DNA of 64,000 nt from Aromatoleum sp. (GCF_036675785.1 NZ_JAKFEF010000069.1:46239-110238), one strand, 5' to 3'; numbered from the stretch's first letter, positions 10,787 through 45,181 are shown. A program made the numbers and translations. The notes: generated by a model from the sequence alone, not told the origin.

Positions 10787-11677
10787 TCAGCGTGCTGGCA
10801 GATACTTCATCGGGTCGACCGGACGTCCCTGCTTGCGGATCTCGAAGTGAAGCTTCGGGCGATCCGCATCGGTACTTCCGAGTTCGGCGATTTTCTGGCC
10901 CTTCGCGACCGACTCCCCTTCCTTTACCAGGAGCTGCTGGTTATGTGCATAGGCGGTGAGGTAGTTCGCGTCGTGCTTGATGATGACCAGTTTTCCATAG
11001 CCGCGCAACCCACTTCCGGAATACACCACCTTGCCCCCGGCCGAAGCGATCACCGAGTCGCCGGGCTTGCCCGCGATGTCCAGTCCCTTGTTCGACGCCT
11101 CGTCGAACGTCCCGATTATCTGGCCGTTCGTCGGCCACAGCCATACCGGATCCGACGTAGTCGAGCCATTCGCGGCGTTCGGCGCGGGAGAAGGCTGCGG
11201 GGGCGGTGCAGCCGGAGTCGCCTTCGGCTGGATGGCCGCCCAGGCCTCGTCGCTGTATGGCTGCTTGCCGCCCCGCGGTTCCTGTTTGACCGTCGCCCTG
11301 GCGCTTTCCATGCCGGGCTCCATCTCGATCGGCTGCGAGATCGCGATCGGCTGCACCGTCGTCCCGCTGGGAGGACCGACGAAGATCTCCTGGCCAACGT
11401 GGATCTGGTTCGGATCGGCAAGCTGGTTCCACGCGATCAGGTCCTTCGTCTGGACGCCATAATTGCGCGCGATTCCGAGCAGGGTGTCCCCCGGGCGGAC
11501 GATGTGCACCGGCTGGCCGGTCGAAGACGGCGGGGCGGCGCCGGCACCCCGCTGCGACGAAGGCGGCGTGGTGTCGCGCACCGGGGCCGGCGATGGCGCG
11601 ACACAGCCGGTCAGCAGCGCGGCGAAAAGGACGAGCGTGAGAAATCGCGGGGCGTTCGAATTGTTTTGATGAGTCAT
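10787..11677 (-). CDS. nlpD: LysM/M23 peptidase lipoprotein NlpD
   Basis: Lipobox LLTGC, LysM segment ([17 protein letters not shown]), Pro-rich linker and an M23 C-terminus. Confidence 0.9.
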
Positions 11678-12330
11678 TCCATTCCAGTTAGCAAGGGCAC
11701 GAAGCGAACGGCCTCGTACCGGCTCTCCTTGAAAACATTACCTTGACGTTCGACCATCACGAGCCGCTGATCCGCGGTGCCCAGCGGCATCATCAGCCGG
11801 CCCCCGGGCGCGAGCTGCGCCTTCAGCGATGACGGGACACTTTGCGCCGCCGCCGCGACGATGATCGTGTCGAACGGGGCCGCCTCCGGCAGCCCGAGGC
11901 TACCGTCGGCACATTTCAGCCGCACGTTGGGAAGCCTCAACGGCCGGAGGTTTTCGCGGGCGACATCGAGCAACGGCCGAATCCGCTCCACGGCGTACAC
12001 CTCGGTGGCAACGAAGGACAGCACGGCCGCCTGATACCCGCAGCCGGCGCCGACTTCCAGGGTTCGTCCCAACTCGCGCCCGGCGCGCAGGATCTCGATC
12101 ATCCGCGCGACGACGAGCGGCTGCGAAATCGTCTGCTGATAACCGATCGGGAGCGCGGTGTCGTCGTACGCGCTATACGCGAGGCCCTCGTCGACGAACT
12201 TGTGCCGCGGCACCTGCATCATCGCGGCGAGAACGCGCTCATCGGTGATCCCCTGTCCCCGCAAGCGCTCGACCATGCGGCCACGCGCGCGTCCGGCCGC
12301 CTGGCCGGCGTCCCGCGAATGCAGAGTCAT
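11674..12330 (-). CDS. pcm: Protein-L-isoaspartate O-methyltransferase
   Basis: [13 protein letters not shown]...[15 protein letters not shown]. Confidence 0.95.
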
Positions 12331-13070
12331 TTACGAATCCACTCGCCGACGGCAGGAATGAGGCCGTTATGGGTCAGATCGATCTGCAGCGGCGTGACCG
12401 AAACGAAACCGTCCGAGACGGCGTTGAAATCCGTCCCGTCTCCCGCGTCCGCTGCCTGCCCGGCGGCGCCGATCCAATACACGGTGTCGTTGCGCGGCGT
12501 AACGCTGCGGATCACCGGTTCCGCCTTGTGCCGCTTGCCGAGGCGGGTGATGCGGGTGCCTTTGAGATCGTCGTAGGGCAGGTCCGGAACATTCACGTTG
12601 AGCAGCACCGGTTGCTGGAACGGGGCGCGCGTGAAGCGCTCGGCGAGATCGCGCGCGACGCGCGCGGCAGCGGAAAAATCGGTCGCCGCCTTGCTGACGA
12701 GCGAAACCGCAATCGACGGCACGCCGAGCAGATAGCCCTCGGTGGCGGCGGCGACAGTTCCGGAGTAGATCGTGTCGTCACCCATGTTCGCGCCATGGTT
12801 CACGCCGGACACGACCATGTCCGGGAGATGGTCCAGCATACCGGTCACGGCGAGGTGGACGCAGTCGGTCGGGGTGCCATTGACGAAGTAGAAGCCGTTT
12901 GCCGAGCGCCGCAGCGACAGCGGCCGGTCCAGCGTGAGCGAATTGCTCGCGCCGCTGCGATCGCGCTCGGGCGCGACGACCGTGACGTCCCCGACCGCGC
13001 TCAGCGCTTCCGCGAGCGCGGCAATGCCGGGCGCAAAATAACCGTCGTCGTTGCTGACCAGAATCCGCAT
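12327..13070 (-). CDS. surE: 5'/3'-nucleotidase SurE
   Basis: [16 protein letters not shown]...[14 protein letters not shown]. Start trimmed to the ATG at 13070. Confidence 0.95.
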
Positions 13071-13543
13071 GCTTGTTCCGTTCGGAGCGGCACGTGCTGA
13101 ACGCCGTGCCCGTTGTATCGCCGAGGCGACGGAGGATCTTAGCACAGCGGCACACCGCGCTCAGCGCGTCGTGAGCACCGGACCGGACGACGCTTGCGTC
13201 GTTGAGGTCGCGTGCCGCGGCCGCTCGAACCCCGTCGCCGCGCCCCGGGGCGAGGCAGCCCGAACTTTTTACATCCTCCGGTCCGTCGCGGGTAGCTTTT
13301 ACCGATGCCGCTCGCGGCCGCCTCTGCCGGCCGCCGGCACCTTTCTTGCCGTTCGCGTCACGCAGAAGCGGCAGGAGACGGCCATGAGCGGAGGTTTCGG
13401 CGATCGCGACCTGGAACGCACCAGCGCAGGGCGCCTCCAGCGGCGCTTCGCATGCCGCGGGGGCGCTGCACACCGGGCTCCGGGTCCCGTTAGCCCACGC
13501 GGCGCACGCTCGCCGTCGACCGCGCGGGCGGGTTGATCGAAGG

Positions 13544-13954
13544 ATGCCCGTTCGGGAAAGCGCGGCTCCCATAGAGTCGGTCGTCGTCGCCGGCGAATAC
13601 GGCTACGACCCGACGCACTTCCGGCGGATGCTGGAAGCACAGGCGGTCGATGTCCTGCAGGCGGACGCGACACGCTGCGGCGGCATCACCGGGTTTCTCG
13701 GCGTCGCCGCGCTGTGCGAAGCCTTCCACGTGCCGCTTTCGAGCCACTGCGCGCCGTCCCTGCACCTGCCGCTGTGCTGCGCCGCGCGGCCGACGGTCCA
13801 TCTCGAATATTTCCACGATCACGTGCGCATCGAACAGCTCCTGTTCGACGGCGCCGTGCAACCGTTGGACGGCCTGCTCTCCCCGCTTGACGACCGGCCC
13901 GGCCTGGGCCTCGTGTTCAAGGGACAAGACGCCCGATGCTTCAGGAACCCGTAG
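13544..13954 (+). pseudogene. 3' remnant (about 135 codons) of an enolase-superfamily (mandelate racemase/muconate lactonizing enzyme-like dehydratase) gene
   Basis: VRESAAPIESVVVAGEYGYDPTHFRRMLEAQAVDVLQADATRCGGITGFL...HLEYFHDHVRIEQLLFDG matches only the C-terminal barrel part of the family. No N-terminal capping domain or metal-ligand region is found in any frame upstream. Confidence 0.75.
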
Positions 13955-16872
13955 ACATCAGCGCGCTGTCGCGGCGCGGCGGCGTCGATGCGAAGTCACT
14001 GGAGCGCGAACTTCGCGACGCGATCTCGGGCGAGGTGCGCTTCGACGCCGGCAGCCGCGCGCTCTACGCGACCGACGCGTCGAACTATCGGCAGGTCCCG
14101 ATCGGCGTCGTGATTCCGCGCAGCGTCGACGACGTCGTGCGCACGGTCGCGCTGTGCCGGCAGCATCGCGCGCCGATCCTGTCGCGCGGCGGCGGCACGA
14201 GCCTGTGCGGCCAGTGTTGCAACGTCGCGGTCGTGATGGATTTCTCGAAGTACCTGAACCGCATTCTCGAAATCGACGTCGAGCACAAATTCGCGCGGGT
14301 CGAACCGGGTGTCGTCCTCGACGATCTGCGCGGCGCCGCCGAGCCGCACGGGCTCACGTTCGCGCCCGACCCGGCCACCCACACGCACAACACGCTCGGC
14401 GGCATGCTCGGCAACAATTCCTGCGGCCCGCATTCGGTGATGGGAGGCGAAACGACGCACAATGTCGTCGAACTCGACATCCTGACCTACGACGGCCTGC
14501 GGATGACCGTCGGCGCCACGGACGACGAGACCTTCGAGCGCATCGTCGGCGAAGGCGGCCGGCGGGCCGAAATCTATTGCGAGCTGCGCGATCTTGCCGC
14601 GCGCCACGCGGACGAGATCCGCCGCCGCTTTCCGCCCATCCCCCGCCGCGTATCGGGTTTCAACCTGCCGCCGCTGTTGCCCGAAAACGGCTTCCATGTC
14701 GCCTGCTCGCTGGTCGGCTCCGAGGGCACGTGCGTCACCGTGCTCGAAGCGAAGCTTCGACTCGTCGACTGGCCGCCGGCGCGCTCGCTGCTCGTGCTCG
14801 GCTACCCGAGCGTGTTCGAGGCGGCAGACCACGTCCCGATGGTCATGGAAGCCCGGCCGATCGCGCTCGAAGGCTTCGACGATCGTCTCATCGCGGACAT
14901 GAAGGCGATGCAGCTCCATCCGCGCAACATCGCTCTGCTCCCCGAGGGCGCCGGCTGGCTGCTCGTCGAGTTCGGCGGCGCCGACGGCGCGCAGGCCGAC
15001 GAACGCGCGCAAGCCCTGATGGACCGGCTGCGGCAAACACCGCTACCGCCGCAGATGGCGCTCTACCACGATCCGCGAGAGCAACAGCAGATCTGGAAGG
15101 TCCGCGAGTCCGGACTCGGCGCCACCGCGCACCTGCCGGACAAGCCGCTCACGTGGGAGGGCTGGGAGGACTCTTCGGTGCCGCCGGAGAGACTCGGCGA
15201 ATACCTGCGCGAGTTGCGCGCGCTGCTCGAAAAGCACGGTTACGAAGGCGACCTGTACGGCCACTTCGGCCAGGGCTGCGTGCATACGCGCATCGATTTC
15301 GATCTCGAAAGCGCGGACGGCATCCCCAGGTTCCGCGAATTCATCCACGCCGCCGCACGGCTCGTGACGCGCCTCGGCGGGTCGATCTCGGGCGAGCACG
15401 GCGATGGCCAGTCGAAGGCGGAACTGCTCCCAATCATGTACGGCGACGAGGTGATGCAGGCGTTTCGCGAGTTCAAGACGATCTGGGACCCGGGCAACCG
15501 GATGAATCCCGGCAAGGTCATCGACGCGCACCGCGCCGACGAGGACTTGCGCCTCGGCATCGCCTACGATCCCCCGCGCGTCGCGACGCAGTTCGCGTAT
15601 GGCTCGGACAACCACGACTTCGCGCGTGCGCTGCTGCGCTGCGTCGGGGTCGGAGAATGCCGCGGCAAAACCGGCGTGATGTGCCCGAGCTACATGGCGA
15701 CCGGCGAGGAAATGCATTCGACGCGCGGTCGCGCGCGGCTGCTGTTCGAGATGTTGCGCGGCGAAACGCTCACCGGCGGCTGGCAGGAACCGGCCGTCAA
15801 GGAGGCGCTCGACCTCTGCCTGTCGTGCAAGGGCTGCAAGGGCGAATGCCCGGTGCACGTGGACATGGCGACGTACAAGGCAGAGTTCCTGTCGCACTAT
15901 TACGAAGGACGCCGGCGGCCCGCGGCGGCCTACGCGTTCGGGCTGATCGACCGCTGGGCGCGGCTCGCGTCGCGCATGCCGCGCGTCGCGAATTACTTCT
16001 CGCAGCACGAGCCGTTCGCCGCGATCGCGAAGCGGGTGATCGGGATCGCGCCGCAGCGCTCGCTTCCGGCCTTCGCGGTGAAACCCTTCACCCACACTTT
16101 CTGCAATCGCCGCGGCGCCGGCACGCCGGTGATCCTCTGGCCCGACACGTTCAACAACTACTTTCACCCGGAAGTCGCGCAGGCGGCCGCTGAAGTCCTC
16201 GACGGCGCCGGTTTCGAGGTGCGCGTGCCGCGCATCCACCTGTGCTGCGGGCGGCCGCTGTACGAATTCGGCATGCTCGACCGCGCCCGCCAATACCTGC
16301 TCCGCATCCTCGACACGCTCGACGCCGAAATCCGCCAAGGCATTCCGATCGTCGGCCTCGAGCCGGCCTGTGTCACCGTCTTTCGCGAGGAGCTCCCCGA
16401 GATCCTGCCGGACAACGAGCAGGCGATGCGGCTGAGCCGGCTGGTTTTCCCGCTCGCCGAATTTCTCGCGCAGCACGCGCCCGACTTCCCGTTCGCGCCG
16501 CTCCGCCGCGAGGCGCTGGTCCACGGCCACTGCCACCAAAGGGCGATCCTTGGAATGGACGCCGACGCCGCGCTGCTGGGGAAGCTCTGCCTCGATTTCC
16601 GCATCCTCGATTCGGGCTGTTGCGGCATGGCGGGCTCGTTCGGTTTCGAGAAGGCGAAGTACGAAGTTTCGCTGCGCTGCGGCGAGCGCGTGCTGCTGCC
16701 CGCGGTCCGCAAAGCCGACGACAGCACGCTGATCATCGCCGATGGGTTCAGCTGCCGCGAACAGATCCTGCAGACGACGCCGCGCCGGCCGGTCCATCTC
16801 GCGCAGGTGCTGCGCCTCGCGATGACAGCCAAGCCGGCCGCCACCCGGATCTCGCCGGAGCGGCGCGAGTGA
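13936..16872 (+). CDS. FAD-binding (PCMH/GlcD-like) plus 2x[4Fe-4S] plus CCG-domain (GlcF-like) fusion oxidoreductase, YdiJ-like
   Basis: 978 aa. FAD domain (PIGVVIPRSVDDVVRTVALCRQHRAPILSRGGGTSL), ferredoxin motifs (CVGVGECR..., CLSCKGCKGECP) and CCG motifs (HLCCGRP, SGCCGMAGSFG). Confidence 0.9.
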   Translation: MLQEPVDISALSRRGGVDAKSLERELRDAISGEVRFDAGSRALYATDASNYRQVPIGVVIPRSVDDVVRTVALCRQHRAPILSRGGGTSLCGQCCNVAVVMDFSKYLNRILEIDVEHKFARVEPGVVLDDLRGAAEPHGLTFAPDPATHTHNTLGGMLGNNSCGPHSVMGGETTHNVVELDILTYDGLRMTVGATDDETFERIVGEGGRRAEIYCELRDLAARHADEIRRRFPPIPRRVSGFNLPPLLPENGFHVACSLVGSEGTCVTVLEAKLRLVDWPPARSLLVLGYPSVFEAADHVPMVMEARPIALEGFDDRLIADMKAMQLHPRNIALLPEGAGWLLVEFGGADGAQADERAQALMDRLRQTPLPPQMALYHDPREQQQIWKVRESGLGATAHLPDKPLTWEGWEDSSVPPERLGEYLRELRALLEKHGYEGDLYGHFGQGCVHTRIDFDLESADGIPRFREFIHAAARLVTRLGGSISGEHGDGQSKAELLPIMYGDEVMQAFREFKTIWDPGNRMNPGKVIDAHRADEDLRLGIAYDPPRVATQFAYGSDNHDFARALLRCVGVGECRGKTGVMCPSYMATGEEMHSTRGRARLLFEMLRGETLTGGWQEPAVKEALDLCLSCKGCKGECPVHVDMATYKAEFLSHYYEGRRRPAAAYAFGLIDRWARLASRMPRVANYFSQHEPFAAIAKRVIGIAPQRSLPAFAVKPFTHTFCNRRGAGTPVILWPDTFNNYFHPEVAQAAAEVLDGAGFEVRVPRIHLCCGRPLYEFGMLDRARQYLLRILDTLDAEIRQGIPIVGLEPACVTVFREELPEILPDNEQAMRLSRLVFPLAEFLAQHAPDFPFAPLRREALVHGHCHQRAILGMDADAALLGKLCLDFRILDSGCCGMAGSFGFEKAKYEVSLRCGERVLLPAVRKADDSTLIIADGFSCREQILQTTPRRPVHLAQVLRLAMTAKPAATRISPERRE

Positions 16873-17792
16873 GCGTCTGGCTCCAGTCCGCCCTCGCTCC
16901 GCGCGGTCCGGAAGCGGCGGCGATCGCCGAAATCACCTGGGTCCTCGTCGCCGCGGGCGCGGTGATCTTCGCGATCGTGCTCGTGATCGCCGCGCTCGCG
17001 CTGTTCCGGCCGCACGCCTGGCTCGGCAGCACCCGCCTCATCGTCGCGGGCGGCATCGTCTTTCCGGTCGTCGTGCTGTCGGCGCTGCTCGTCTACGCGC
17101 TGCTCGCGGCGCCGCGGCAGGCCGCCGCCGGACCCGCGGACGTCGTCGTCGAAGTGGTCGGCCACCAGTGGTGGTGGGAGGTGAATTATCTCGACGACAG
17201 CGGCGCGCCCGACTTCACGACGGCGAACGAGATCCACATCCCGGTCGGTCGGGAAGTCGAGCTGAGGCTGCACTCGGCCGACGTGCTGCACAGCTTCTGG
17301 GTGCCCGCGCTCGCCGGCAAGCTCGACCTGATTCCCGGCAAGGACAACCGGCTGCGCCTCGCGGCCGATCAGGCGGGGACGTTCCGCGGCCAGTGCGCCG
17401 AGTATTGCGGCGGACCCCACGCGCAGATGGCGCTTTTCGTCGTCGCCGAAGATCCCGCGCGTTTCGACGCGTGGCGAACGGCGCAGCGCGAACCGCAGCG
17501 AGGCATCGCTGACCCGCAGGCGACCGAGGGCAGGCAGCTCTTCCTCGCCCATTGCGGGTCGTGTCACACACTGCGCGGGACCGTGGCCGAAGGGAAGCTC
17601 GGACCGGATCTGACGCACTTCGGCAGCCGCATCGCGCTCGGCGCCGGCATCCGGCCGAACCACACGGGCGCGCTCGCCGGCTGGATCGCCGGCAACCAGC
17701 GGATGAAGCCGGGCAACCTGATGCCGGAAATCCGCGATCTGGATGGCGACGAACTGCGGACGCTGTCCGATTGGCTCGGGACGCTGAAGTAG
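16869..17792 (+). CDS. Cytochrome c oxidase subunit II with C-terminal haem c domain (caa3-type IIc)
   Basis: GTG start overlaps the upstream stop (GTGA). Two TM helices, CuA motif HSFWVP...CAEYCGGPHAQM, and a C-terminal CGSCH. Confidence 0.9.
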   Translation: MSVWLQSALAPRGPEAAAIAEITWVLVAAGAVIFAIVLVIAALALFRPHAWLGSTRLIVAGGIVFPVVVLSALLVYALLAAPRQAAAGPADVVVEVVGHQWWWEVNYLDDSGAPDFTTANEIHIPVGREVELRLHSADVLHSFWVPALAGKLDLIPGKDNRLRLAADQAGTFRGQCAEYCGGPHAQMALFVVAEDPARFDAWRTAQREPQRGIADPQATEGRQLFLAHCGSCHTLRGTVAEGKLGPDLTHFGSRIALGAGIRPNHTGALAGWIAGNQRMKPGNLMPEIRDLDGDELRTLSDWLGTLK

Positions 17793-18878
17793 ATGCTCGA
17801 GAACCTCTCCGTGTGGGGCAACGTCGGGGTTTTCGCGCTCGGCGCGGCGATCGTGTGGGCGGCCGGCACACGGGTCGCCCGCTATGCCGATGCAATCCAG
17901 CGCCGCACCGGGATGGGCGAGGCGGTCGCCGGGATGCTGCTCCTCGGCCTGATCACCGCCCTCCCCGAAGTGGCGGTCACCGTGACCGCTTCGCACAGCG
18001 GCGACGCGACGCTGGCCGTCAATAACATCCTCGGCGGCTTGGCGCTGAATGTCGCGATCCTCGCGAGCGCGGATGCGGCGATTCGCCGGGAAGCGCTCAC
18101 CGCGACGGTCGCTTCGGCGCTGCCACTGCTGCAGGGTGCGCTGCTGGTGCTGATGCTCTCGATCGCCGCCGCGGCGACGGTCGCGGGAGACCGGCAGATC
18201 TTCGGCGTCGGCATTTGGTCCTGGCTGCTGCTCGGGATCTATGGGCTGAGTGTCGAGCTCGTCCGCAAGACCCGCGGCCACGAAGCGTGGGTGCCGACGA
18301 AAGGCAAGGCGCTCGCCGGCGCAACGAGTGCTGCGCAGCGCGGTGACAGCGCCAAGACGGGCGAGAGGAACGAAAGGGCCAGGAGCGAAAGGGACAGGAG
18401 CGGCTCTCCGCTCCCGGCCTTGATCGGCAAGACCGCGCTCGGCGCCGGCGCGATCCTCGCTGCGGGCTACGCGATTGCCCGCAGCGGCGAGGCGCTCGCC
18501 GAGCAGACGGGGCTCGGCGCGAGCTTCTTCGGCGCGGTATTCCTCGCGGTATCGACCTCGCTGCCCGAGATCACGATCGTCTTTTCGTCGGTCCGCCTCG
18601 GCCGCTATGCGATGGCGGTGTCCGACATCCTCGGCGCGAACCTCGTCGGCCTGACCCTGCTCTTCGTCGCCGACGCGGCGTACCGCGGCGGTCCGGTATT
18701 GGCGCAAGTCGACCGTTTCGGGACGTTCGCCGCACTGCTCGCGATCGCGGTGACCGCCCTCTTCATCGCCGGCCTCCTCGAACGGCGCCACGCGATGGTG
18801 CTGCGCATGGGCGTCGACTCGCTCGCCGTGATCGGCACCTACCTCGCCGGCGTCGTCGTGCTGTATCGCCTCAAATGA
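17793..18878 (+). CDS. CaCA-family (YrbG/Na+:Ca2+ exchanger-like) cation antiporter
   Basis: Two internal halves carry alpha-repeat-like motifs GLITALPEVAV and AVSTSLPEITIV, joined by a charged central loop. ATG immediately follows the TAG of subunit II. Confidence 0.8.
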   Translation: MLENLSVWGNVGVFALGAAIVWAAGTRVARYADAIQRRTGMGEAVAGMLLLGLITALPEVAVTVTASHSGDATLAVNNILGGLALNVAILASADAAIRREALTATVASALPLLQGALLVLMLSIAAAATVAGDRQIFGVGIWSWLLLGIYGLSVELVRKTRGHEAWVPTKGKALAGATSAAQRGDSAKTGERNERARSERDRSGSPLPALIGKTALGAGAILAAGYAIARSGEALAEQTGLGASFFGAVFLAVSTSLPEITIVFSSVRLGRYAMAVSDILGANLVGLTLLFVADAAYRGGPVLAQVDRFGTFAALLAIAVTALFIAGLLERRHAMVLRMGVDSLAVIGTYLAGVVVLYRLK

Positions 18879-21382
18879 CGACGCTGCCCAATCCCGCGCC
18901 GCGACCGGAAGGCGAAGTCGACGAACTGCGACGACTCTGGAGCCGGCCACGCGGCATTCGCTGCATCACCGTCATCAACAACAACTACATCGGCATCATG
19001 TACGTCGGCGCGGCGTTCCTGTTCTTCGTGCTCGCCGGCATCCTCGCGCTGCTGATGCGCGTGCAGCTCGCGGTGCCGGAGAACGACTTCCTCGGCCCCG
19101 ACCGCTACAATCAGCTCTTCACGATGCACGGCACCGTGATGATGTTCCTGTTCGCGGTGCCGGCGGTCGAGGCGATGGGCATCCTGCTGCTGCCGAACAT
19201 GCTCGGCGCGCGCGACCTGCCGTTCCCGCGCCTGTCCGCCTACGCGTTCTGGGCCTATCTCGTTGGCGGGCTGGTGTTCTTCGCGAGCATCTTCAAAGGC
19301 TGGGCGCCCGACGGCGGCTGGTTCATGAACCCGCCGTTGACGAACGAGACGTACTCGCCGGGCTACAACGCCGATTTCTGGCTGCTCGGCATCGGCTTCA
19401 TCGAAATCTCGGCGATCGCCGGCGCGGTCGAGATCGTCGTCGGCGTGCTGCGCACGCGCGCGCCCGGGATGACGCTCGGCAGGATGCCGATCTTCGCGTG
19501 GGCGATGCTCGTGTTTGCGGTGATGATCATCTTCGCGTTTCCGGCGGTGATCCTCGCGACCGCGCTGCTCGAACTCGAACGCGCGTTCCACTGGCCGTTC
19601 TTCGTCGCCGAACTCGGCGGCGACCCGCTGCTGTGGCAGCACCTGTTCTGGTTCTTCGGCCACCCGGAGGTCTACATCATCTTCCTGCCGGCCGCCGGCA
19701 TGGTTTCGATGATCGTGCCGACGCTGGTGCAGGCGCCGCTCGTCGGTTACCGCTACGTCGCGCTGGCGCTCGCGGCGACCGCGTTCCTGAGCTTCGGCCT
19801 GTGGGTGCACCACATGTTCGCGACCGGCATTCCGCAGCTGTCGCTGTCGTTCTTCCAGGCCGCGAGCATGGCGGTCGCGATTCCGGCGGGCGTCCAGGTG
19901 TTCGCGTGGATCGCGACGCTCGCGCACGGCCGCGGGCGCGTGAAGATGACGACACCCGCGCTCTTCGTCCTCGGCTTCCTCTTCACCTTCGTCCTCGGCG
20001 GGCTCACCGGCGTGATGGTCGCGGTGATCCCGTTCGACTGGCAGGCGCACGACAGCTACTTCATCGTCGCCCACCTGCATTACGTGCTGATCGGCGGCAT
20101 GGTGTTTCCGCTGTTCGCGGGCTTCTACTACTGGATGCCCTACACGAGCCGCCACCGTCTGTCGGAACGGCTCGGGCGCTGGGTCTTCGGGCTGATGTTC
20201 GTCGGCTTCAACATCGCGTTCTTCCCGATGCACATCACCGGGCTCGCGGGGATGCCGCGCCGGGTCTATACGTACGCCGCGGGCTACGGCTGGGACGCGC
20301 TCAATTTCGTGTCGACGGTCGGCGCGTTCCTGATCGCCGCCGGCGTGCTCGTCTTCATCGTCGATGTCGCGCGGAAGTTCCGCATGGCGTCCGAGGACAA
20401 CGCCGGCAACGTCTGGAACGCCGGCACGCTCGAATGGCTGCCGAACGGCAATTATTCCAGCCGCAGCATTCCGATCGTCACGAGCCGCGAGCCGCTGTGG
20501 GATCAACCGAACCTCGCTGCGGACGTCGAGGCCGGTCACTACTACCTGCCGGGTGCGCCGACCGGCGGGCGCGAGACGATCGTCACGAGCGCGCTCGATG
20601 CCAGACCGGAGTTCCTGCTGCGCATGCCGATGCCCGGCTGGGCGCCGCTGGTCGCGGCGTGGTTCACCGCGGCGTTCTTCCTGCTGCTGACGGTGAAGCT
20701 CGTCGTACCCGCGGCGGTCTGCGGCGTCATCGCGATCGCCGGCATGCTGCACTGGGCGTGGGCACTCGACCCGGCGCCGCCCGCCGCGCCGATCGAGATC
20801 GGCGGCGGCATCCACCTGCCGGCCTATCTGAGCGGCCCGCGCTCCCAGTCGTGGTGGGGCGTCGTCGTGCTGCTGCTCGTCTCAGCTGCGCTCTACGGCT
20901 GCGCGGTGTTCTCCTACCTTTACCTGTGGACGGTCGCGCCGTGGACATGGCCCGCGCCCGCGCAGCTTCCGGGCCTCGCCTACCCGTTCGCCGAGGCGCT
21001 GCTGCTCGGCGCGAGCAGCCTCGCGGTCGGGCTCGCGAACCGCCGGCTCTCGGCGGGCCAGCGCCGGATCGGCGCCCCGCTCGTCGCCGGCCTGCTTCTC
21101 CTGGTCGCCGCCGTCGCCGTCGAGGTCTGCGCACAACGCGACTTTCCGCCGGCCGCTTCGGCCTACGGCGCAATCGTCTGGCTGCTCGCGTCGCTCGCCG
21201 GTTTCCAGGCGTTCGTCGTCGTCACGATGGCGGTGTTCACGCTCGCGCGGGCGGCAAGCGGCAAGCTCGACCGGGTGCGCCGCGTCACGTTCGACAACGC
21301 CCGGCTCTTCTGGCATTACACCGTCGGGCAGAGCCTCGTCGGCGTCGCCGTCGTGCATGGCTTTCCGCGGATGCTCGGATGA
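18875..21382 (+). CDS. Haem-copper oxidase subunit I fused to subunit III (835 aa)
   Basis: TMHGTVMMF, WFFGHPEVY, WVHHMF and AHLHYVL, with a C-terminal 5-TM subunit III-like part (LFWHYTVGQ). Confidence 0.9.
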   Translation: MTTLPNPAPRPEGEVDELRRLWSRPRGIRCITVINNNYIGIMYVGAAFLFFVLAGILALLMRVQLAVPENDFLGPDRYNQLFTMHGTVMMFLFAVPAVEAMGILLLPNMLGARDLPFPRLSAYAFWAYLVGGLVFFASIFKGWAPDGGWFMNPPLTNETYSPGYNADFWLLGIGFIEISAIAGAVEIVVGVLRTRAPGMTLGRMPIFAWAMLVFAVMIIFAFPAVILATALLELERAFHWPFFVAELGGDPLLWQHLFWFFGHPEVYIIFLPAAGMVSMIVPTLVQAPLVGYRYVALALAATAFLSFGLWVHHMFATGIPQLSLSFFQAASMAVAIPAGVQVFAWIATLAHGRGRVKMTTPALFVLGFLFTFVLGGLTGVMVAVIPFDWQAHDSYFIVAHLHYVLIGGMVFPLFAGFYYWMPYTSRHRLSERLGRWVFGLMFVGFNIAFFPMHITGLAGMPRRVYTYAAGYGWDALNFVSTVGAFLIAAGVLVFIVDVARKFRMASEDNAGNVWNAGTLEWLPNGNYSSRSIPIVTSREPLWDQPNLAADVEAGHYYLPGAPTGGRETIVTSALDARPEFLLRMPMPGWAPLVAAWFTAAFFLLLTVKLVVPAAVCGVIAIAGMLHWAWALDPAPPAAPIEIGGGIHLPAYLSGPRSQSWWGVVVLLLVSAALYGCAVFSYLYLWTVAPWTWPAPAQLPGLAYPFAEALLLGASSLAVGLANRRLSAGQRRIGAPLVAGLLLLVAAVAVEVCAQRDFPPAASAYGAIVWLLASLAGFQAFVVVTMAVFTLARAASGKLDRVRRVTFDNARLFWHYTVGQSLVGVAVVHGFPRMLG

Positions 21383-21678
21383 ACGCCGATCTCGCCCGCC
21401 TGCGCATGCTCTCCGGCGTCGTCATCTGGGCGCTGCACTTCGCCGCGATCTACGGTTTCACGGCCGTCGCGTGTGCACGCCGGTTCCCCGGCCCGGTGCC
21501 GCTCGCGGTCGCGCTGGCGACGCTCGTCGGCGCAACCGCGTGCGCGCTCATCGTCATCGCCGAGCTGCGCGGGCGGCAGGGGTTCGAGTCCTGGATGACC
21601 GGCGGGCTCGTGGCGATCGCGCTGCTCGCGATCGTCTGGGAAGCCGTACCGGTTCTCGTCGTCACGCCATGCGAGTGA
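21379..21678 (+). CDS. Small 3-TM membrane protein (possible oxidase subunit IV-like accessory subunit)
   Basis: ATGA overlap with subunit I/III. 99 aa with three hydrophobic segments and no recognisable motif. Confidence 0.6.
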   Translation: MNADLARLRMLSGVVIWALHFAAIYGFTAVACARRFPGPVPLAVALATLVGATACALIVIAELRGRQGFESWMTGGLVAIALLAIVWEAVPVLVVTPCE

Positions 21679-22097
21679 GCACTGCAGACCTTTCCAGCGG
21701 TTCGCTTTTCCCGGCCGCCATCCGGGCGACGTCGCCGCACCGTGTGCTCGGTCGGTTCGCCGCTGTCGTCTGCATCGTCCTCGCCGGCTGCGGTGACAAT
21801 CCGCCGCCTGCACTGGGCGGCGACCCGGACAACGGGCGCCTGCTGCTGCGCCAGTTCGGCTGCGGCAGTTGCCACCGCATTCCCGGGGTCGCGGCGGCAC
21901 GCGGCAACGTCGGCCCGTCGCTGGAGGGCGTCGCGACGCGCGTCTATCTCGGCGGGGTGTTGCCGAACACGCCCGAAAACATGGTCCGGTGGATCCGCAA
22001 CCCGAAGCAGTTCGACCCCGAAACCGCGATGCCGGACCTGCCTATCGCCGAAGGACAGGCGCGCGACATCGTCGCCTACCTTCAGGGCCTGAAATGA
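21669..22097 (+). CDS. Monohaem c-type cytochrome, lipoprotein
   Basis: Lipobox VLAGCG, one CGSCH, and a distal Met in ETAMPDL. Confidence 0.85.
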   Translation: MRVSTADLSSGSLFPAAIRATSPHRVLGRFAAVVCIVLAGCGDNPPPALGGDPDNGRLLLRQFGCGSCHRIPGVAAARGNVGPSLEGVATRVYLGGVLPNTPENMVRWIRNPKQFDPETAMPDLPIAEGQARDIVAYLQGLK

Positions 22098-22915
22098 AAA
22101 GACTTCTTTTCGCGCTGTCCGCCCTCGCAGCGACCGTTGCCGTCGCCGCGGCCGTCGTCATCTATGGCGGTCTCTACGACATCTCGGCGACGGATCAGCA
22201 CCTCGCGCCGACCTACCGGATTCTCGATGTGGCGATGCGACGCTCGATCGCGCGGCGCGCGGCGAACATCGTCGTGCCGCCGCTCGACGCCCCGCCGATG
22301 CTCGACCGCGGACTCGCGCTCTACGACGCGCATTGCGTGCAGTGTCACGGCGCGCCGGGCGTCGCACCGGAACCGTTCGCGCTCGGCCTGACGCCGGCCC
22401 CCGCGAACCTCGCCCACACGGCTCGCGCGTGGCCGCCGGCCGACATCTACTGGGTGGTGCGCAACGGCATCAAGATGACGGGCATGCCCGCGTGGCAGTT
22501 ACGGCTCAGCGACGCCGACCTCTGGGCCGTCGTCGCGTTCGTCGAGAAGCTGCCGGAGCTGTCGCCCCGCGATTACGACGGACTGACCGGCGCGCTCGGG
22601 CCGGCCCGCACCGAGGAGATGCCGGTGCGCAACCGGCCCGACCCGGAACGCGGCAAAACGGCGATGCAGCAATACGCCTGCGTGACCTGCCACCGGATCC
22701 CCGGTCTCGTCGGGCCACACGCGCCGGTGGGCCCGCCACTCGACGGCATCGGCAGCCGGACCTACATCGCCGGCGTGCTGCGCAACGAGCCCGACAACAT
22801 GATCCGCTGGCTGCGCTCGCCGCAGGACGTCAACGCCGCGAGCGCGATGCCGAATCTCGGCGTCGGCGAGCAGGACGCGCGCGACATCGCGGCCTATCTC
22901 GCGACGCTGGATTAG
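22094..22915 (+). CDS. Membrane-anchored dihaem c-type cytochrome
   Basis: N-terminal TM helix with CVQCH and CVTCH. The second domain is paralogous to the preceding monohaem protein. Confidence 0.85.
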   Translation: MKRLLFALSALAATVAVAAAVVIYGGLYDISATDQHLAPTYRILDVAMRRSIARRAANIVVPPLDAPPMLDRGLALYDAHCVQCHGAPGVAPEPFALGLTPAPANLAHTARAWPPADIYWVVRNGIKMTGMPAWQLRLSDADLWAVVAFVEKLPELSPRDYDGLTGALGPARTEEMPVRNRPDPERGKTAMQQYACVTCHRIPGLVGPHAPVGPPLDGIGSRTYIAGVLRNEPDNMIRWLRSPQDVNAASAMPNLGVGEQDARDIAAYLATLD

Positions 22916-23150
22916 GGCGCGCACTCCCCGACCGCCCCCGGCTGCGACGGACGAGGTCCGGGGGCACGCGGATTGCATGTTTTCCGGGTCGCGAGCGTGA
23001 CGAAAAACCGGACGGGCCGTGACCATGGCGTTTGATCACGCGGTCGAGTCCGACAACGACACTCGCATACCCCGCCCACTTCCGCGCCCCGCACCGGGAC
23101 AGCCGATCCCGGGCCGCTCGCCAAACCGGAGTCTTGCCAGGAGAAGGTCC

Positions 23151-24461
23151 ATGGATCGCAGCCCGCTCCTCCTATCCGTCGTGTTTTCGCTTGGACTCGG
23201 CGCGTGCGCGGAACACGCGCAGCTTTTGCCGTCGGCCAGCGTGGGGCCCGATCCGACGCTGCCGCCGCCGACGAAGTCGCTGATTCCCACCGTCGACATC
23301 GCGCCCGCAGCGGGATGGCCGGACGGCGTGAAGCCGACCGGACCGGCCGGCACTCGCGTCGACGCGTTCGCGACGGGGCTCGATCATCCGCGCTGGCTCT
23401 ACGTGCTGCCCAATGGCGACGTGCTCGTCGCCGAGACGAACGCGCCCGAACGGCCCGAACAGGGCAAAGGGATCAAGGGCCGCGTGATGAAGATGGTCCA
23501 GAAACGCGCCGGCGCAGGCGTGCCGAGCGCTAACCGGATCACGCTGCTGCGCGATGCGGACGGCGATGGCACGGCAGAAGGCCGCTTCGCGTTTCTCGAA
23601 GGCCTCAACTCGCCGTTCGGCATGACGCTGGTCGGACGTGACCTGTACGTCGCGAACACCGACGCCGTCGTCCGCTTCCGCTACGAGGAAGGGCAGACGT
23701 CGATTACCGCGTCCGGGACGAAGCTCGTCGACCTGCCGGCCGGCCGGCTCAACCATCACTGGACGAAGAACGTCATTGCGAGCCCCGACGGTTCGAAGCT
23801 CTACGTGACGACGGGGTCGAACAGCAACGTCGCCGAGAACGGCATCGAAGCCGAAGCCGGGCGCGCCGCGATCTGGGAAGTGGACGCGAAAACCGGGGAG
23901 CACCGCGTGTTCGCGAGCGGGCTGCGCAATCCGAACGGACTCGACTGGCACCGCGGCACGGGCAAGCTGTGGACGGTCGTCAACGAACGCGACGAACTCG
24001 GCAGCGACCTCGTGCCGGATTACCTGACGTCGGTCGCCGACGGCGCGTTCTACGGCTGGCCGTACAGCTACTTCGGCAACCGCGTCGACGAACGGGTCGT
24101 GCCGCCGCGGCCCGATCTCGTCGCGACCGCCATCAAGCCCGACTACGCGCTCGTCCCGCACAGCGCCCCGCTCGGCCTCGCGTTCGCCGACGGCAGCGCG
24201 CTGCCGCCGCCGTTCCGCAACGGGGCCTTCATCGGGCTGCATGGGTCGTGGAACCGCAGGCCGCCGAGCGGCTACAAGGTCGTCTTCGTGCCGTTCGCGG
24301 ACGGCCTGCCGAGCGGCGAGCCGATCGACGTGCTGACCGGATTCCTCTCCGCAGACGGTGATGCGTACGGCCGGCCGGTCGGCGTGGCGATCGACCGCAG
24401 CGGCGCGCTGCTCGTCGCCGACGACGTCGGCAACGTGGTCTGGCGGGTGGCGCCGCGCTGA
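23151..24461 (+). CDS. PQQ-dependent sugar (sorbosone/aldose) dehydrogenase family lipoprotein
   Basis: Lipobox LGLGAC and beta-propeller motifs ([35 protein letters not shown]). GGAGAAGG lies upstream of the ATG at 23151. Confidence 0.85.
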
Positions 24462-24540
24462 GTCATGGCAACGGTTTCAAACGCGCGGCAGTTCTTGCAT
24501 CGCGGGGACACGCGGCCGCTTCCGACGGCCGCGCACGCCG

Positions 24541-25251
24541 CTATGCCCGCGGCGCGTCCTCGACTTCGTCGCGCGTAACCTTCAGCCGCATCTCGCGCGT
24601 CAGCCAGTCCACGCTGTCGACGGCATCGACCGGCACCAGCACATGTTTGCCCGGCAGCCAGTTGCGCGTGTCGACGATCATCCGGTCGATCCCCCAGTTC
24701 GTTTCGTCGACGACGAAATCCTCGACGTGACCGATCGGACCATCGGTCGCGACGACCCGGTAGCCGATCACTTCGTCGCTGCTGCGCAGGTGCGACTCGC
24801 GCGCCTGCTGCTCCGCCTCCTTCAAGTCCTGCGTGCGCTCGCGCGGCGGCGCTCCCTGCGGCGGAGTCGTCACCGACGGCGCGCCGGTGATCGGATGTTG
24901 CGTCGTGCCCCAAAGGTAAGGGCCGTCCCAGTAGAACGGATAACCGTAGTAGTTCGCGTGCGCTTCCTCGAACTGACGCGACACCGGCTGGTGCTCGTCC
25001 GGCCCCGGACAGTTGCGGACCTGCTCGCGGGTCAGCGTGACCGCGATGTCCTTGTGGCCGGAGCCGTTGCGGCGGATCGACGCGGGCGAAATCAGGACTT
25101 TTCGCCCTGGCACTCCGGTGCCGGCATCGACTTCGAGGTAGCGCACGACCCAGCGCTGGTCATCGAAATACACGTCCCGAACCGTCCCGATCCGGCCGTC
25201 GGTTGCGACGAGATGCTTGCCGAACAGTTCGCCTTTTGCCTCGAGAAGCAT
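24541..25251 (-). CDS. Tandem PRC-barrel domain protein
   Basis: Two PRC-barrel-like segments (LVATDGRIGTVRDVYFDD and VVATDGPIGHVEDFVVDE) joined by a linker containing YYGYPFYWDGPYLWG. Confidence 0.8.
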   Translation of the reverse strand: MLLEAKGELFGKHLVATDGRIGTVRDVYFDDQRWVVRYLEVDAGTGVPGRKVLISPASIRRNGSGHKDIAVTLTREQVRNCPGPDEHQPVSRQFEEAHANYYGYPFYWDGPYLWGTTQHPITGAPSVTTPPQGAPPRERTQDLKEAEQQARESHLRSSDEVIGYRVVATDGPIGHVEDFVVDETNWGIDRMIVDTRNWLPGKHVLVPVDAVDSVDWLTREMRLKVTRDEVEDAPRA

Positions 25252-25363
25252 ATCGGTCTCCTTCGTTTCGTCGCAGTCCGGTCATTCCAGCAAACACCGT
25301 TCCGCCGTCTCGCGGGAACGCCGCTTGCGGACCCGCCGATCATCGACCACCCGCGAGGCCGCG

Positions 25364-26141
25364 ATGAACGACCGGCTGAAGGACCGCATTGCAATCGTCA
25401 CCGGATCGGACTCCGGCATCGGCCAAGCGATCGCCGAAGCCTTCGCCGCCGAAGGCGCAGACGTCGTCGTCACGTATCTGGACGATCGCCAGGGCGCGGA
25501 CGAGACGCGCGGGCGCATCGAAACAGCGGGCCGCCGAGCCGAAGTCATCCGGGTGGACCAGCGCGAGCCGCTCGAAGTCGACCGCCTCTTCCGCGAAACG
25601 CGAAATACACTCGGCATTCCCTACATTCTGGTAAACAACGCCGCGGTCGGCGGCGTCGGCGGGCAGTGGTCGACACGTCGCCGGAAGACTGGGACAGGGT
25701 TCTGAAGACTGACCTGTACGGGCCGTTCTATTGCTGCCGTCACTTCGTGCGCGAGAGGCGCGCCGCGGGCGGCCGGGGCAAGATCATCAACGTCACGTCG
25801 GTGCACGAGGAAATCCCGCTCGCGGACGCCGCCGCGTACAACGCCGCGAAGGCGGCTTGCGCAACCTCACCCGCACGCTGTGCCTCGAACTCGCGCCGGA
25901 CCACATCAATGTGAACAACATCGCGCCGGGGATGGTGCTGACGCCGATGAACCAGCAGGCGATCGACGACCCGGCGGCGCGCGAACGGCAAGTGCAGCAC
26001 ATCCCGTGGAAACGCGCGGCCGAACCGTGGGAAATCGCGCGACTCGCGCTGTACCTCGCGTCCGAGGATGCCGACTACGTGACGGGGCAGACCTTCACGA
26101 TCGACGGCGGCCTTTCAATCAACGTCGGCCAGGGCGCGTAG
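25364..26141 (+). pseudogene. Short-chain dehydrogenase/reductase (glucose 1-dehydrogenase / FabG-like) interrupted by two -1 frame changes
   Basis: Three pieces fall in three frames. Piece 1 is TGSDSGIGQAIA...VNNAAVGG. Piece 2 is VVDTSPEDWDRVLKTDLYGPFYC...NVTSVHEEIPLADAAAYNAAK. Piece 3 is GGLRNLTRTLCLELAPDHINVNNIAPG...TFTIDGG. The breaks are near 25665 and 25861. Confidence 0.8.
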
Positions 26142-36220: not shown

Positions 36221-37831
36221 TCAGTGGCTCGTGCCTTCCTCGCGCGTGATCTTGTTCCAGACGTTGTACTTGCCGACCGGCTTCTTCATCGGGAGGCGCT
36301 TGACCTCCTCGAGCGTCTTCGCGTCGTAAACGATCACGGCGCCGTCCATCTCCCACAGGCTCGCGAGCGCGTAGCGCCCGTCGCGCGTGAACTCGATGTG
36401 CGCGAGCGTCTTGCCGGGGTCGGTCTTCAGTTCCCGCACGACTTCGAGCGTCTGCTTGTCGATGACCTGCAGCACGTTCTTCGCGTCCCGGCTCATCATC
36501 GAGTCGACGAAGGCGTAGCGGCTGTTCTCGTGGCTGCGCAGGAAGAAGCCGGGGCCGCGCGTCGGGATGCGTTTGACGACGCTCCAGTCCTGCATGTCGA
36601 TGACCGTGACTTCGGCGGCCTTCAGGTTCGTGCTCGCCATCACGCGCCGGCCCTGCCAGTCCCAGGTGATCCCCGACCCCAGGTGCGGCATGCCGTCGAG
36701 CGGCAGATCGGCGATCTTGCGGCGCACGTCCAGCTGCACGACCTGACCGACGCCGTCGCGCGACGCGCCGAGCAGCGTCGAGTAGTCCTGCGTGAAGAAG
36801 AAGTCATCGAGCACTTCGGCGAGTTCGGTCCGCCGCGGGTTGAGGTAGCCGCGGACGAACGCGCCCTCGCGGTACTGGTAGTCGTGCACGTAACCGGTCG
36901 GGATTTCCTCGGCGGTCTGGTCGTAGCTGATCTCCCACACTTCGGGCACGTCCTTCAGCGCGGCGACGAAGGAGTTGCGCGGTGTCGCCTCATAGACTGC
37001 GGACACGCGCGACGTCTTCTTGCCTTCGCGGTCGGTGACGTCGATCGACTTCAGCAGGTTCAGGTCGCCGTCGAGCAGCACGAGCGTGTGGGGTAGGTAG
37101 TTCGCGACCGCGACGTGGCGGCCGTCGGGCGACACCGCGACGTTGCGCGTATTGATGCCGGCGCGGATCTCGGCGACGACCTTGAGGTTCCACAGGTCGT
37201 ACTTCGTGACCCAGCCGTCGCGCGAGCCGAAGAACACGTAGCGGCCGTCCTGCGTGAACTTTGGCCCCCCGTGCAGCGCGTGGCGCGACGGGAAGCGGTG
37301 GATCGGCTCGAGGCGGTCGCCGTCGAGCACCGACACGTGGTGGTCGCCGCTCTCGACGACGACGAAGAGGTTCATCGGGTCGGCGTCGAACACCGGCTTC
37401 GCAGAGAGGGTCGCGGGATCGACATGCGCGATGCGCGACGCGCGGATGTCTGCCTCACTCCATTTTGGCGCCGGCACGACCGGCGAGTAGATCCACGCGC
37501 CGAGCGCGGCGATCTCGTCGGCGTTCAGGACGCCGCCGAACGCCGGCATCTGCGTCGCCGTGCGTCCGCCGCGAATCACGTCGAGCGCTTCGTCCTTCTT
37601 CAGGCGCGCGAGGTTTTCCGGCAGCAGCGCCGGACCGGTGCCGCCGAGGCGGTCCGCGCCGTGGCACGTCGCGCAATGTTGTTGGTAGTGACTTATGGGG
37701 CCTGGCGTGTCGTCCGCACGGGCGGACGCATAGCCGGCAGCCGCCGCGACGACGAGTGCGGCTGCGGCGACGATTCGGTACGGCGCACGGGCAGCGATGG
37801 TGCGTGGCGCATTGCGGGCTTTCATCGTCAA
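36221..37831 (-). CDS. nirN: NirN (cytochrome c plus d1-type beta-propeller; dihydro-haem d1 dehydrogenase)
   Basis: Signal peptide, CATCH haem c domain and a NirS-like propeller (HHVSVLDGD, HGGPKFTQDGRY). Position after nirJ. Confidence 0.85.
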   Translation of the reverse strand: MTMKARNAPRTIAARAPYRIVAAAALVVAAAAGYASARADDTPGPISHYQQHCATCHGADRLGGTGPALLPENLARLKKDEALDVIRGGRTATQMPAFGGVLNADEIAALGAWIYSPVVPAPKWSEADIRASRIAHVDPATLSAKPVFDADPMNLFVVVESGDHHVSVLDGDRLEPIHRFPSRHALHGGPKFTQDGRYVFFGSRDGWVTKYDLWNLKVVAEIRAGINTRNVAVSPDGRHVAVANYLPHTLVLLDGDLNLLKSIDVTDREGKKTSRVSAVYEATPRNSFVAALKDVPEVWEISYDQTAEEIPTGYVHDYQYREGAFVRGYLNPRRTELAEVLDDFFFTQDYSTLLGASRDGVGQVVQLDVRRKIADLPLDGMPHLGSGITWDWQGRRVMASTNLKAAEVTVIDMQDWSVVKRIPTRGPGFFLRSHENSRYAFVDSMMSRDAKNVLQVIDKQTLEVVRELKTDPGKTLAHIEFTRDGRYALASLWEMDGAVIVYDAKTLEEVKRLPMKKPVGKYNVWNKITREEGTSH

Positions 37832-37843
37832 TCCATTCGAAGG

Positions 37844-39046: not shown

Positions 39047-39067
39047 GGGACTCTCCTAGGTGCGGTG

Positions 39068-39109: not shown

Positions 39110-39165
39110 GCCAGAGGAGCGAAGACGACGGCATGGCGCCGCAGAGGGGGCCGCGGTCGGCCGCA

Positions 39166-39477: not shown

Positions 39478-39506
39478 CGGAACCTCCGTCAAGGGTGCGC
39501 ACAGAT

Positions 39507-39541: not shown

Positions 39542-39560
39542 TCGCATGCGCAACGAAAGC

Positions 39561-45180: not shown

Positions 45181-45181
45181 G

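Follow-up and report, generated by a model that had tools for sequence, protein, structure and literature searches.

The YdiJ protein of Escherichia coli and PP4493 of Pseudomonas putida are D-2-hydroxyglutarate dehydrogenases (PMC9504171; PMC12297413), and PP4737 of P. putida, which has the same architecture, is reported to be an iron-sulfur D-lactate dehydrogenase with quinone as its acceptor (PMC12297413, citing Jiang 2017). Among the terminal oxidases, the caa3 enzyme of Thermus thermophilus (2yev) combines a CuA-containing subunit II that carries a C-terminal haem c with a single polypeptide for subunits I and III, and a 'superoperon' for alternative complex III and a caa3 oxidase has been described for Acidobacteria (Trojan et al., 2021; PMC8407424). 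The latter paper gave no match to FAD or lactate in a term search, and a dehydrogenase is apparently not discussed there; limited literature searches likewise gave no description of an association between dehydrogenases of the YdiJ architecture and oxidases. In this study, a 64,000-nucleotide stretch of DNA from Aromatoleum sp. (GCF_036675785.1 NZ_JAKFEF010000069.1:46239-110238; hereafter the window, with positions counted from its first letter) was analysed, in which a string of seven genes on the + strand joins a dehydrogenase of this architecture to a haem-copper oxidase with its own cytochromes c. The explanation that we favour, and consider reasonably probable, is that the string is a composite operon which arose by deletions and which would co-express the dehydrogenase and oxidase ends of one aerobic branch connected through quinone.

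An earlier, sequence-only reading of the window had proposed seven open reading frames (ORFs) at 13936-22915 with six overlapping or abutting junctions, and the ORFs, their domains and their junctions were all confirmed by reading the sequence and by comparison with Pfam and NCBIfam (Table 1). The TGA stop codon of the dehydrogenase lies within the GTG start codon of subunit II (GTGA at 16869-16872, CGCGAGTGAGC), and between subunit II and the gene for a CaCA-family antiporter a TAG is followed by ATG (17790-17795, AAGTAGATG). ATGA overlaps link the antiporter to subunit I+III (18875-18878, AAATGACG), subunit I+III to a 99-aa ORF (21379-21382, GGATGAAC) and the monohaem to the dihaem cytochrome c (22094-22097, AAATGAAA). 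The 10-nt overlap claimed between the 99-aa ORF and the monohaem cytochrome (21669-21678, CCATGCGAGTGAGC) is present in the sequence but is insecure because the start of the cytochrome is insecure; among its orthologues, only the 94%-identical one of locus L086 (related loci are denoted by L and a number) has the first 23 residues as well, and the others start ~23 residues later. The G+C content at third codon positions (GC3) is 0.83-0.92 across all seven ORFs, the coding signature of a 68% GC genome. A Shine-Dalgarno-like sequence is absent before four of the six downstream genes, which fits termination-reinitiation coupling. A scan for sigma70 promoters and intrinsic terminators, uninformative in DNA of 68% GC, returned no promoters and four terminator-like sites, fewer than in shuffled sequence; no site of either kind beyond chance lies between the seven genes, and one of the terminator-like sites (13325-13339) overlaps a sigma54-like element upstream of the string. 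The proposed translational coupling is thus supported, and the seven genes have the appearance of a single, tightly coupled unit. Over 12500-25500, Rfam gave no RNA family at E <= 0.1, and a repeat search found low-identity GC-rich noise only, with no insertion-sequence elements and no repeats flanking the deletion points described below. The edges of the string had been read incompletely: an enolase-superfamily fragment, a remnant of a thiamine pyrophosphate (TPP) enzyme gene and the sigma54-like element were overlooked on the left, and a gene for a glucose/sorbosone dehydrogenase (GSDH) lipoprotein was overlooked just downstream on the right.

Table 1. Features of the seven-gene string and its edges in the window.
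Feature	Position	Strand	Basis or remark
Sigma54-type promoter-like element GGCAC-N5-TTGC	13336..13349	+	Consensus match; predicted function
PoxB-like TPP-enzyme gene remnant	13384..13536	+	Ribosome-binding site, ATG, first codons, then out-of-frame sequence
5'-truncated enolase-superfamily (MR_MLE) fragment, pseudogene	13544..13954	+	Pfam MR_MLE_C profile positions 98-216 only
978-aa FAD / 2x[4Fe-4S] / 2xCCG dehydrogenase, GlcD+GlpC fusion	13936..16872	+	Pfam/NCBIfam
Cytochrome c oxidase subunit II, CuA + C-terminal haem c	16869..17792	+	TIGR02866 CoxB, Pfam COX2, Cytochrom_C
CaCA-family cation antiporter, between subunits II and I	17793..18878	+	Pfam Na_Ca_ex (PF01699), two repeats
Fused subunit I+III, A1-type haem-copper oxidase, non-canonical K channel	18875..21382	+	COX1, TIGR02891, 2yev alignment
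99-aa three-helix membrane protein, after subunit I+III throughout the clade	21379..21678	+	Three hydrophobic segments
Monohaem cytochrome c lipoprotein, LAGC lipobox	21669..22097	+	Pfam; start codon uncertain
Dihaem cytochrome c, N-terminal hydrophobic anchor	22094..22915	+	Pfam, hydrophobicity
Second sigma54-type element GGCAC-N5-TTGC	22963..22976	+	Upstream of GSDH gene; 10/11 vs consensus
Pyrroloquinoline quinone (PQQ)-type GSDH lipoprotein	23019..24461	+	Pfam GSDH, lipobox; start probably Met44, 23148

The dehydrogenase contains the FAD_binding_4, FAD-oxidase_C, Fer4 and CCG domains in the composition of its architecture class, namely the flavin adenine dinucleotide (FAD) pair, two 4Fe-4S sites and two CCG domains. 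All of the conserved cysteines are kept (569/575/583, 628/631/634/638, 770/771, 812, 866, 895/896 and 940), as are 258 of 259 near-invariant columns, which rules out a decaying relic; judged by these residues, the enzyme is functional and under constraint. It is 100% identical to database protein P0241, whose source label is Aromatoleum sp. The description 'YdiJ-like' holds for the domain architecture but not for the subfamily: identity to E. coli YdiJ is 28% over the full length, the YdiJ-type model NF049975 gives 499.8 bits against a cut-off of 1350, and on these measures the dehydrogenase belongs to a distinct subfamily, a member of which in the acidobacterial locus L141 is 58% identical. 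With YdiJ, PP4493 and PP4737 it shares the domain order, a size of ~1000 aa and the likely role of passing electrons from D-2-hydroxyacids to the respiratory chain; it differs in the partners of its family, which are a PoxB-like TPP enzyme, an enolase-superfamily protein, ASRT and terminal oxidases. The FAD domain has the typical D-2-hydroxyacid dehydrogenase fold, and no signal peptide, Tat motif or transmembrane segment is predicted in the protein. The intact TPP-enzyme family corresponds to NF006129 (TPP-requiring proteins), for which the next-best models are pyruvate oxidase and ubiquinone-dependent pyruvate dehydrogenase; the family is related to E. coli PoxB, a pyruvate:ubiquinone oxidoreductase, and of this partner the window keeps the promoter and first codons only. 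A literature search on bll4481 and bll4480 gave nothing.

The origin of the string can be read from its relatives. In most proteobacterial-type relatives the dehydrogenase stands in a unit consisting of the TPP enzyme, the enolase-superfamily protein, the dehydrogenase and ASRT. In Azoarcus sp. PA01 (L081) this unit precedes an ion-channel gene, after which come a gap of 188 nt and the oxidase module, with two genes between dehydrogenase and oxidase; in L083 five genes intervene, and in L085 and L082 the two are not adjacent, L085 having the TPP gene alone upstream. The dehydrogenase has the Ion_trans gene on its downstream side in L081 as well as in L083, an argument for the presence of that gene in the ancestor. 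The order of the oxidase module from subunit II to the dihaem cytochrome, tight junctions included, is conserved in L081-L085. Two independent metagenome assemblies, L168 and L169, carry a dehydrogenase that is 82% identical to that of the window, and they share with it the surE-pcm-nlpD-rpoS flank (on the opposite strand upstream of the string, with the surE start read at 13070), the sigma54-type element, the TPP remnant and a 4-nt overlap of dehydrogenase and subunit II, here ATGA. The adjacency is hence not unique to this strain, and a strain-specific deletion scar at the junction is ruled out. The seven-gene synteny, whose recurrence the sequence-only reading proposed to check, is not general, since the dehydrogenase and the oxidase are separated in Azoarcus sp. 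PA01, L083, L085 and L082; from these comparisons the exact string is restricted to a small lineage related to Aromatoleum, in which deletions produced it.

The deletion scars lie at the left edge and at the first junction. At the nucleotide level the TPP remnant (GC3 = 0.71) begins like the TPP genes of L081, L085, L025 and L043, with which its start ATGAGCG..GGCGA aligns, and tblastn with the full TPP protein found no other TPP sequence in the window. From 13568 the enolase-superfamily fragment retains residues 241-368 of the 368-aa L081 orthologue at 80% identity (tblastn), and its last 19 nt overlap the start of the dehydrogenase gene, just as they do in relatives with an intact gene. The orthologue is intact in L168 and L169 (368 aa), L081, L170, L171, L172 and L173. 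The ancestral layout would have been that of Azoarcus sp. PA01, a sigma54-driven TPP-enolase-dehydrogenase-ASRT operon upstream of a separate oxidase operon, from which the string would have been derived by three losses. The TPP gene would have disappeared except for its promoter and first codons, and the DNA between dehydrogenase and subunit II would have been removed, leaving the dehydrogenase to end inside the subunit II start codon; both the loss and the fusion are shared by L168 and L169 and so predate the split of these lineages. The third loss, in which the enolase-superfamily gene was cut to its last third, would be specific to the lineage of the window, because the gene is intact in L168 and L169. 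The C-terminal tails of the dehydrogenases of the window, L168, L081 and L083 differ after the conserved ..LRLA, as expected if the frame now enters former intergenic DNA. A further relic lies at 25713-26141 (+), a short-chain dehydrogenase/reductase (SDR) gene fragment that covers adh_short_C2 profile positions 148-236 of 236; intact adh_short genes stand beside the oxidase clusters of L170, L173, L082 and L083.

The sigma54-type element ahead of the string is located 34 nt 5' of the ATG of the TPP remnant. It has the GG at -24, the GC at -12 and the spacing expected of a sigma54 promoter, together with a conserved orthologous position: it has aligned counterparts upstream of the TPP genes of L081, L085 and L025 and is kept in L168. 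Exact GGCAC-N5-TTGC occurs twice in the window, both times in intergenic DNA upstream of + strand genes. Among 26 loci with TPP homologues, nine have a sigma54-type element 31-40 nt before the ATG and two more have a weaker match at 12 nt, at a background of 0.025 sites per 200 nt. Such sites are rare upstream of the oxidase module, with two plausible cases among 58 subunit II genes and a third match that is a contig-end artefact. The alignments indicate that the element is inherited from the lost TPP-enzyme gene. The oxidase of the window and that of L168 have lost their own upstream region and so are predicted, most likely, to depend on this inherited promoter, from which ~9.6 kb (13336-22915) would probably be transcribed and then translated with coupling. 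Two motifs, TTTTTACAT and TTTTACCG, are common to window 13220-13335 and L168 3990-4070, ~50-80 nt before the sigma54-like element, and may be activator binding sites; no FNR boxes were found in the upstream regions searched, and an enhancer-binding protein gene lies 7 kb from the dehydrogenase module in L172.

Beyond this lineage, the linkage of dehydrogenase and oxidase was examined in a reciprocal manner, using 80 metagenome loci picked by the dehydrogenase alone. The sequence-only reading knew of no GlcD/GlcF-fusion dehydrogenase inside an oxidase operon, and this did not hold: in a clade of Acidobacteriota (labels Candidatus Acidoferrum and Sulfotelmatobacter) the dehydrogenase ends an alternative complex III-caa3 string, with an A2-type subunit I upstream on the same strand in 22 of the 23 loci with enough upstream DNA. 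The order in L141 is ActC, ActD, ActE, two unassigned ORFs, SCO1, COX2-cytochrome c, COX1, COX3, COX4, a Zn-ribbon membrane protein and the dehydrogenase. The acidobacterial superoperon is thus a single string for a quinol oxidase and a caa3 oxidase that is closed by 58%-identical orthologues of the window dehydrogenase, whereas the window has no alternative complex III, its oxidase is of the fused I+III A1 type and its dehydrogenase stands at the 5' and not the 3' end. Among the proteobacterial-type loci with long flanks, a haem-copper oxidase lies within 10 kb in 5 of 13 (binomial P ~9e-7 at an assumed chance level of 1.5%, our own estimate). In L170 and L173 the dehydrogenase module borders on an alternative complex III-caa3 cluster of the opposite strand, and in L025 (Oxalobacteraceae) and L043 (Halomonas korlensis) it lies directly 3' of a fused oxidase. 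Since the linkage spans three oxidase layouts (fused I+III, proteobacterial alternative complex III-caa3 and acidobacterial A2 caa3) and two phyla, it is considered to be real and recurrent on the strength of these gene neighbourhoods.

The oxidase itself has the layout of the Thermus caa3 enzyme. Subunit II scores 151.9 bits with TIGR02866 (cut-off 147.7), carries the CuA motif H..CAEYCGGPHAQM and the haem motif CGSCH, and aligns with its orthologues at the N-terminus. Subunit I+III scores 670.8 bits with TIGR02891 (cut-off 670.75), aligns with the I+III chain of 2yev over residues 31-824 and gives 455 bits with QoxB of the Bacillus subtilis aa3-600 oxidase against 376 with 2yev. Its FTMHGT, GHPEVY, WVHHMF and AHLHYV motifs align with those of B. 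subtilis QoxB (6koc), so that the six histidine ligands and the cross-linked tyrosine are present, as are the A1 glutamate (GHPEVY) and the D-channel aspartate (GARDLPFPR); the canonical LNN, which holds the two D-channel asparagines, reads LSA here and across the fused I+III clade. The K-channel lysine is absent, the window having IPAGVQVFAW for ..PTGVKIF.W, with Gln for Lys. Of the 120 closest homologues, 112 carry the same Gln and eight fall outside the search pattern; Gln also occupies this position in nearly all fused I+III loci in which the motif was found. Lysine is kept in L078, L079, L105 and L126; a literature search on natural loss of the K-pathway lysine gave nothing. The Thermus enzyme is classed as A2 with a YSHP-type motif, and a YSHP-type motif was also found in the acidobacterial oxidases; the window differs from Thermus in the GHPEVY, Gln and LSA residues, and in an operon that adds the CaCA gene, the 99-aa protein and two further cytochromes c. 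In seven further loci (L057, L059, L066, L068, L070, L073 and L080) subunit I reads GHPWVY, with Trp for the A1 Glu, and this sub-clade of fused oxidases may have a different catalytic or proton-pathway chemistry. The fused I+III family is very large, with at least 8000 candidates at E <= 1e-50, many of which are named 'cytochrome c oxidase subunit I+III'.

In 86 oxidase-centred loci, subunit II-cytochrome c and fused I+III form a near-universal core to which the other genes of the module are added. Caa3_CtaG, an assembly gene, occurs in 59 of them and is missing from the window operon; the window ORFs that were scanned include no ctaA, ctaB, cox11, sco, surf1 or CtaG, in agreement with the sequence-only reading as regards the first five. 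The CaCA protein matches PF01699 with 77.1 bits in two stretches and has approximately nine hydrophobic segments, which places it in the superfamily; it lies below the equivalog cut-offs (TIGR00367, 58 bits against 180). The gene has the same position in L082-L085, L168, L169, L025 and L001, and among the oxidase-centred loci an insertion between subunits II and I is restricted to the closest clade, Devosia and one Oxalobacteraceae genome. Azoarcus sp. PA01 has an internally deleted copy of 83 aa at 9753-10004 of L081 (N-terminal 32 aa + C-terminal 57 aa), so that the transporter is dispensable for the oxidase of that organism. The 99-aa protein, which had no match in Pfam or NCBIfam, is kept in L081-L086, L025 and L006 at 31-84% identity with invariant W17, H20, Y25, C32, R34, W87, E88 and C98; an assignment as subunit IV was ruled out (hhalign against 33 COX4_pro sequences, 0.06% probability), and a role in metal handling or as an accessory subunit is possible. 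In many loci the two cytochromes are encoded close to the oxidase, with side and strand varying. GSDH orthologues of 63-69% identity are found near the oxidase and cytochromes in L008, L009, L021 and L025, and with a sigma54-type element ahead of each, the dehydrogenase-oxidase string and the GSDH gene may share a regulator.

A path for the electrons can be proposed from these components. The dehydrogenase would be a cytoplasmic, membrane-peripheral D-2-hydroxyacid:quinone oxidoreductase, and by analogy with PP4737 it most likely reduces quinone. Oxidation of the quinol would fall to a bc1 complex or an alternative complex III whose genes lie elsewhere, and the two exported cytochromes c would carry electrons to the CuA/haem c subunit II of the A1-type oxidase and then to oxygen. 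The same cytochromes may also receive electrons from the neighbouring periplasmic GSDH lipoprotein, a candidate that is topologically better placed than the dehydrogenase as a direct donor. The gene linkage would accordingly reflect co-expression of two ends of one aerobic branch and not a directly wired pair. In L171 (Rhodocyclaceae) the TPP-enolase-dehydrogenase-ASRT unit runs on, its junctions overlapping, into a pair of Sdh_cyt membrane-anchor genes and one gene for an SdhB-like Fe-S protein (11421-13212); no SdhA is listed beside these SdhC-, SdhD- and SdhB-like genes, and the dehydrogenase or the TPP enzyme may use a quinone anchor of the succinate dehydrogenase type. These genes, together with the quinol-oxidizing complex beside the acidobacterial dehydrogenase, point to electron entry at the level of quinone.

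The sequence-only reading had instead suggested a self-contained chain from substrate to oxygen, in which the dehydrogenase would transfer electrons directly, or as part of a complex, to the cytochromes c and oxidase of the operon without quinone or bc1. The tight junctions, the dehydrogenase/subunit II overlap kept in L168 and L169 and the position of the dehydrogenase family at the end of caa3 operons in Acidobacteriota would suit such a chain, as would the closest solved relative of the dehydrogenase, the mitochondrial D-lactate dehydrogenase LDHD, since mitochondrial D-lactate dehydrogenases of the FAD_binding_4 family use cytochrome c. However, the dehydrogenase has no predicted signal for export or membrane insertion and its Fe-S and CCG domains are typical of cytoplasmic-face enzymes, whereas all three cytochrome c domains are exported, by lipobox, by anchor and as the periplasmic domain of subunit II; direct transfer is therefore topologically implausible, and the oxidase itself is the sole transmembrane electron conduit encoded. 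Furthermore, PP4737 uses quinone (PMC12297413), the string contains no quinol:cytochrome c oxidoreductase, the acidobacterial string holds a quinol oxidase, the module of L171 is followed by SdhCDB-like genes, and in close relatives two to five unrelated genes split the dehydrogenase from the oxidase. A self-contained chain is hence improbable. Another possibility, to which we attach very little probability indeed, is that the dehydrogenase serves the oxidase by supplying cytoplasmic-side reducing power for cofactor or thiol chemistry in its assembly or repair. Disulfide reductases such as HdrB likewise contain CCG domains, the acidobacterial dehydrogenase shares its string with SCO1 as well as the structural genes, and the window operon lacks the CtaG gene that usually accompanies this type of oxidase. 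However, the FAD domain is that of an ordinary D-2-hydroxyacid dehydrogenase, the proteobacterial enzyme travels with partners of catabolic type (a PoxB-like enzyme and a protein resembling acid-sugar dehydratases), the assembly of copper sites and haem c is periplasmic, and many genomes have the oxidase with no dehydrogenase nearby.

It is also conceivable that the adjacency has no functional meaning, that it was produced by neutral deletions in a rearrangement-prone region, and that shared ancestry or a common genomic island lies behind the wider linkage. The region holds three relics (the TPP remnant, the enolase-superfamily fragment and the SDR fragment), the two modules differ from genome to genome in order, side and strand, approximately half of the proteobacterial-type loci have no oxidase nearby, and the neighbourhoods share a PRC-barrel protein, GH15, BON, and trehalose or glycogen genes, all of which speaks for such a history. 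This explanation does not readily account for a linkage that covers three oxidase layouts in two phyla and holds throughout a diverged acidobacterial clade, nor for a dehydrogenase that, after the loss of its TPP and enolase partners, has stayed joined to the oxidase operon, with its sequence fully conserved, in two diverged lineages; we regard it as unlikely, though less so than the two preceding alternatives. A composite operon that links the two ends of one branch through quinone remains our preferred explanation, and several observations weigh against it. The quinone acceptor rests on PP4737 and on gene context (the SdhCDB-like genes of L171 and alternative complex III in Acidobacteriota), and for YdiJ, the 28%-identical homologue, the physiological acceptor is not established according to PMC9504171. 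The window as a whole encodes no bc1 complex or alternative complex III. The sigma54 element is known as a consensus match only, and no enhancer-binding protein gene was seen in the 64 kb. The linkage counts are uncorrected for shared ancestry, and the chance level applied to them is our own figure. No oxidase is found nearby at L104, L108, L110, L122, L138, L171 and L172, which belong to the half of proteobacterial-type loci mentioned above, and a third dehydrogenase clade has no oxidase neighbours. In addition, with the K-channel lysine lost, it is not certain that the window oxidase acts as a standard oxygen reductase.

The wider neighbourhood contains further recurring genes. A PRC-barrel protein gene at 24541-25251 (-) of the window recurs near the dehydrogenase module or the oxidase in L083, L089, L125 and L126, the TPP gene of L170, L172 and L173 has a GH15/TREH_N gene as its divergently oriented neighbour, and BON, DUF1328 and hemerythrin genes are found in the neighbourhoods as well, together with trehalose or glycogen genes. 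This content hints at a stress or stationary-phase island beside rpoS; a link to the general-stress/RpoS regulon, drawn from the rpoS flank and the BON, PRC and trehalose genes, is speculation, and a literature search on it gave nothing usable. Further along the window, a denitrification (nir) cluster occupies 36221-49610, with cd1 nitrite reductase genes at 41163-42878 (-) and 47835-49610 (+), nirT, nirN, nirJ, nirF, nirDLGH-like genes, nirC and nirE, a cupredoxin gene at 39166-39651 (-) and a gene for an EB_dh-like haem protein at 39561-40451 (-).

Every part of the string comes from a known family, and it is the pairing of dehydrogenase and oxidase that suggests an undescribed respiratory partnership. 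A bolder version of this idea, in which the dehydrogenase subfamily is a dedicated electron-input enzyme of caa3-type branches, recruited independently in Acidobacteriota and Rhodocyclaceae into a hard-wired and possibly physically associated 'hydroxyacid oxidase' chain with the clade of oxidases that lack the K-channel lysine, is doubtful and is offered as a long shot. The window nevertheless records the merging of two operons, by deletions that can be dated and that left the predicted sigma54 promoter of the donor driving a terminal oxidase. The very widespread clade of fused I+III oxidases without the K-channel lysine of canonical A-type oxidases merits biochemical study. The repeated position of a large and highly conserved dehydrogenase subfamily, 58% identical between Proteobacteria and Acidobacteriota, beside caa3-type oxidases provides a lead to its role, and possibly to an unrecognized fuel of aerobic respiration in abundant soil bacteria.

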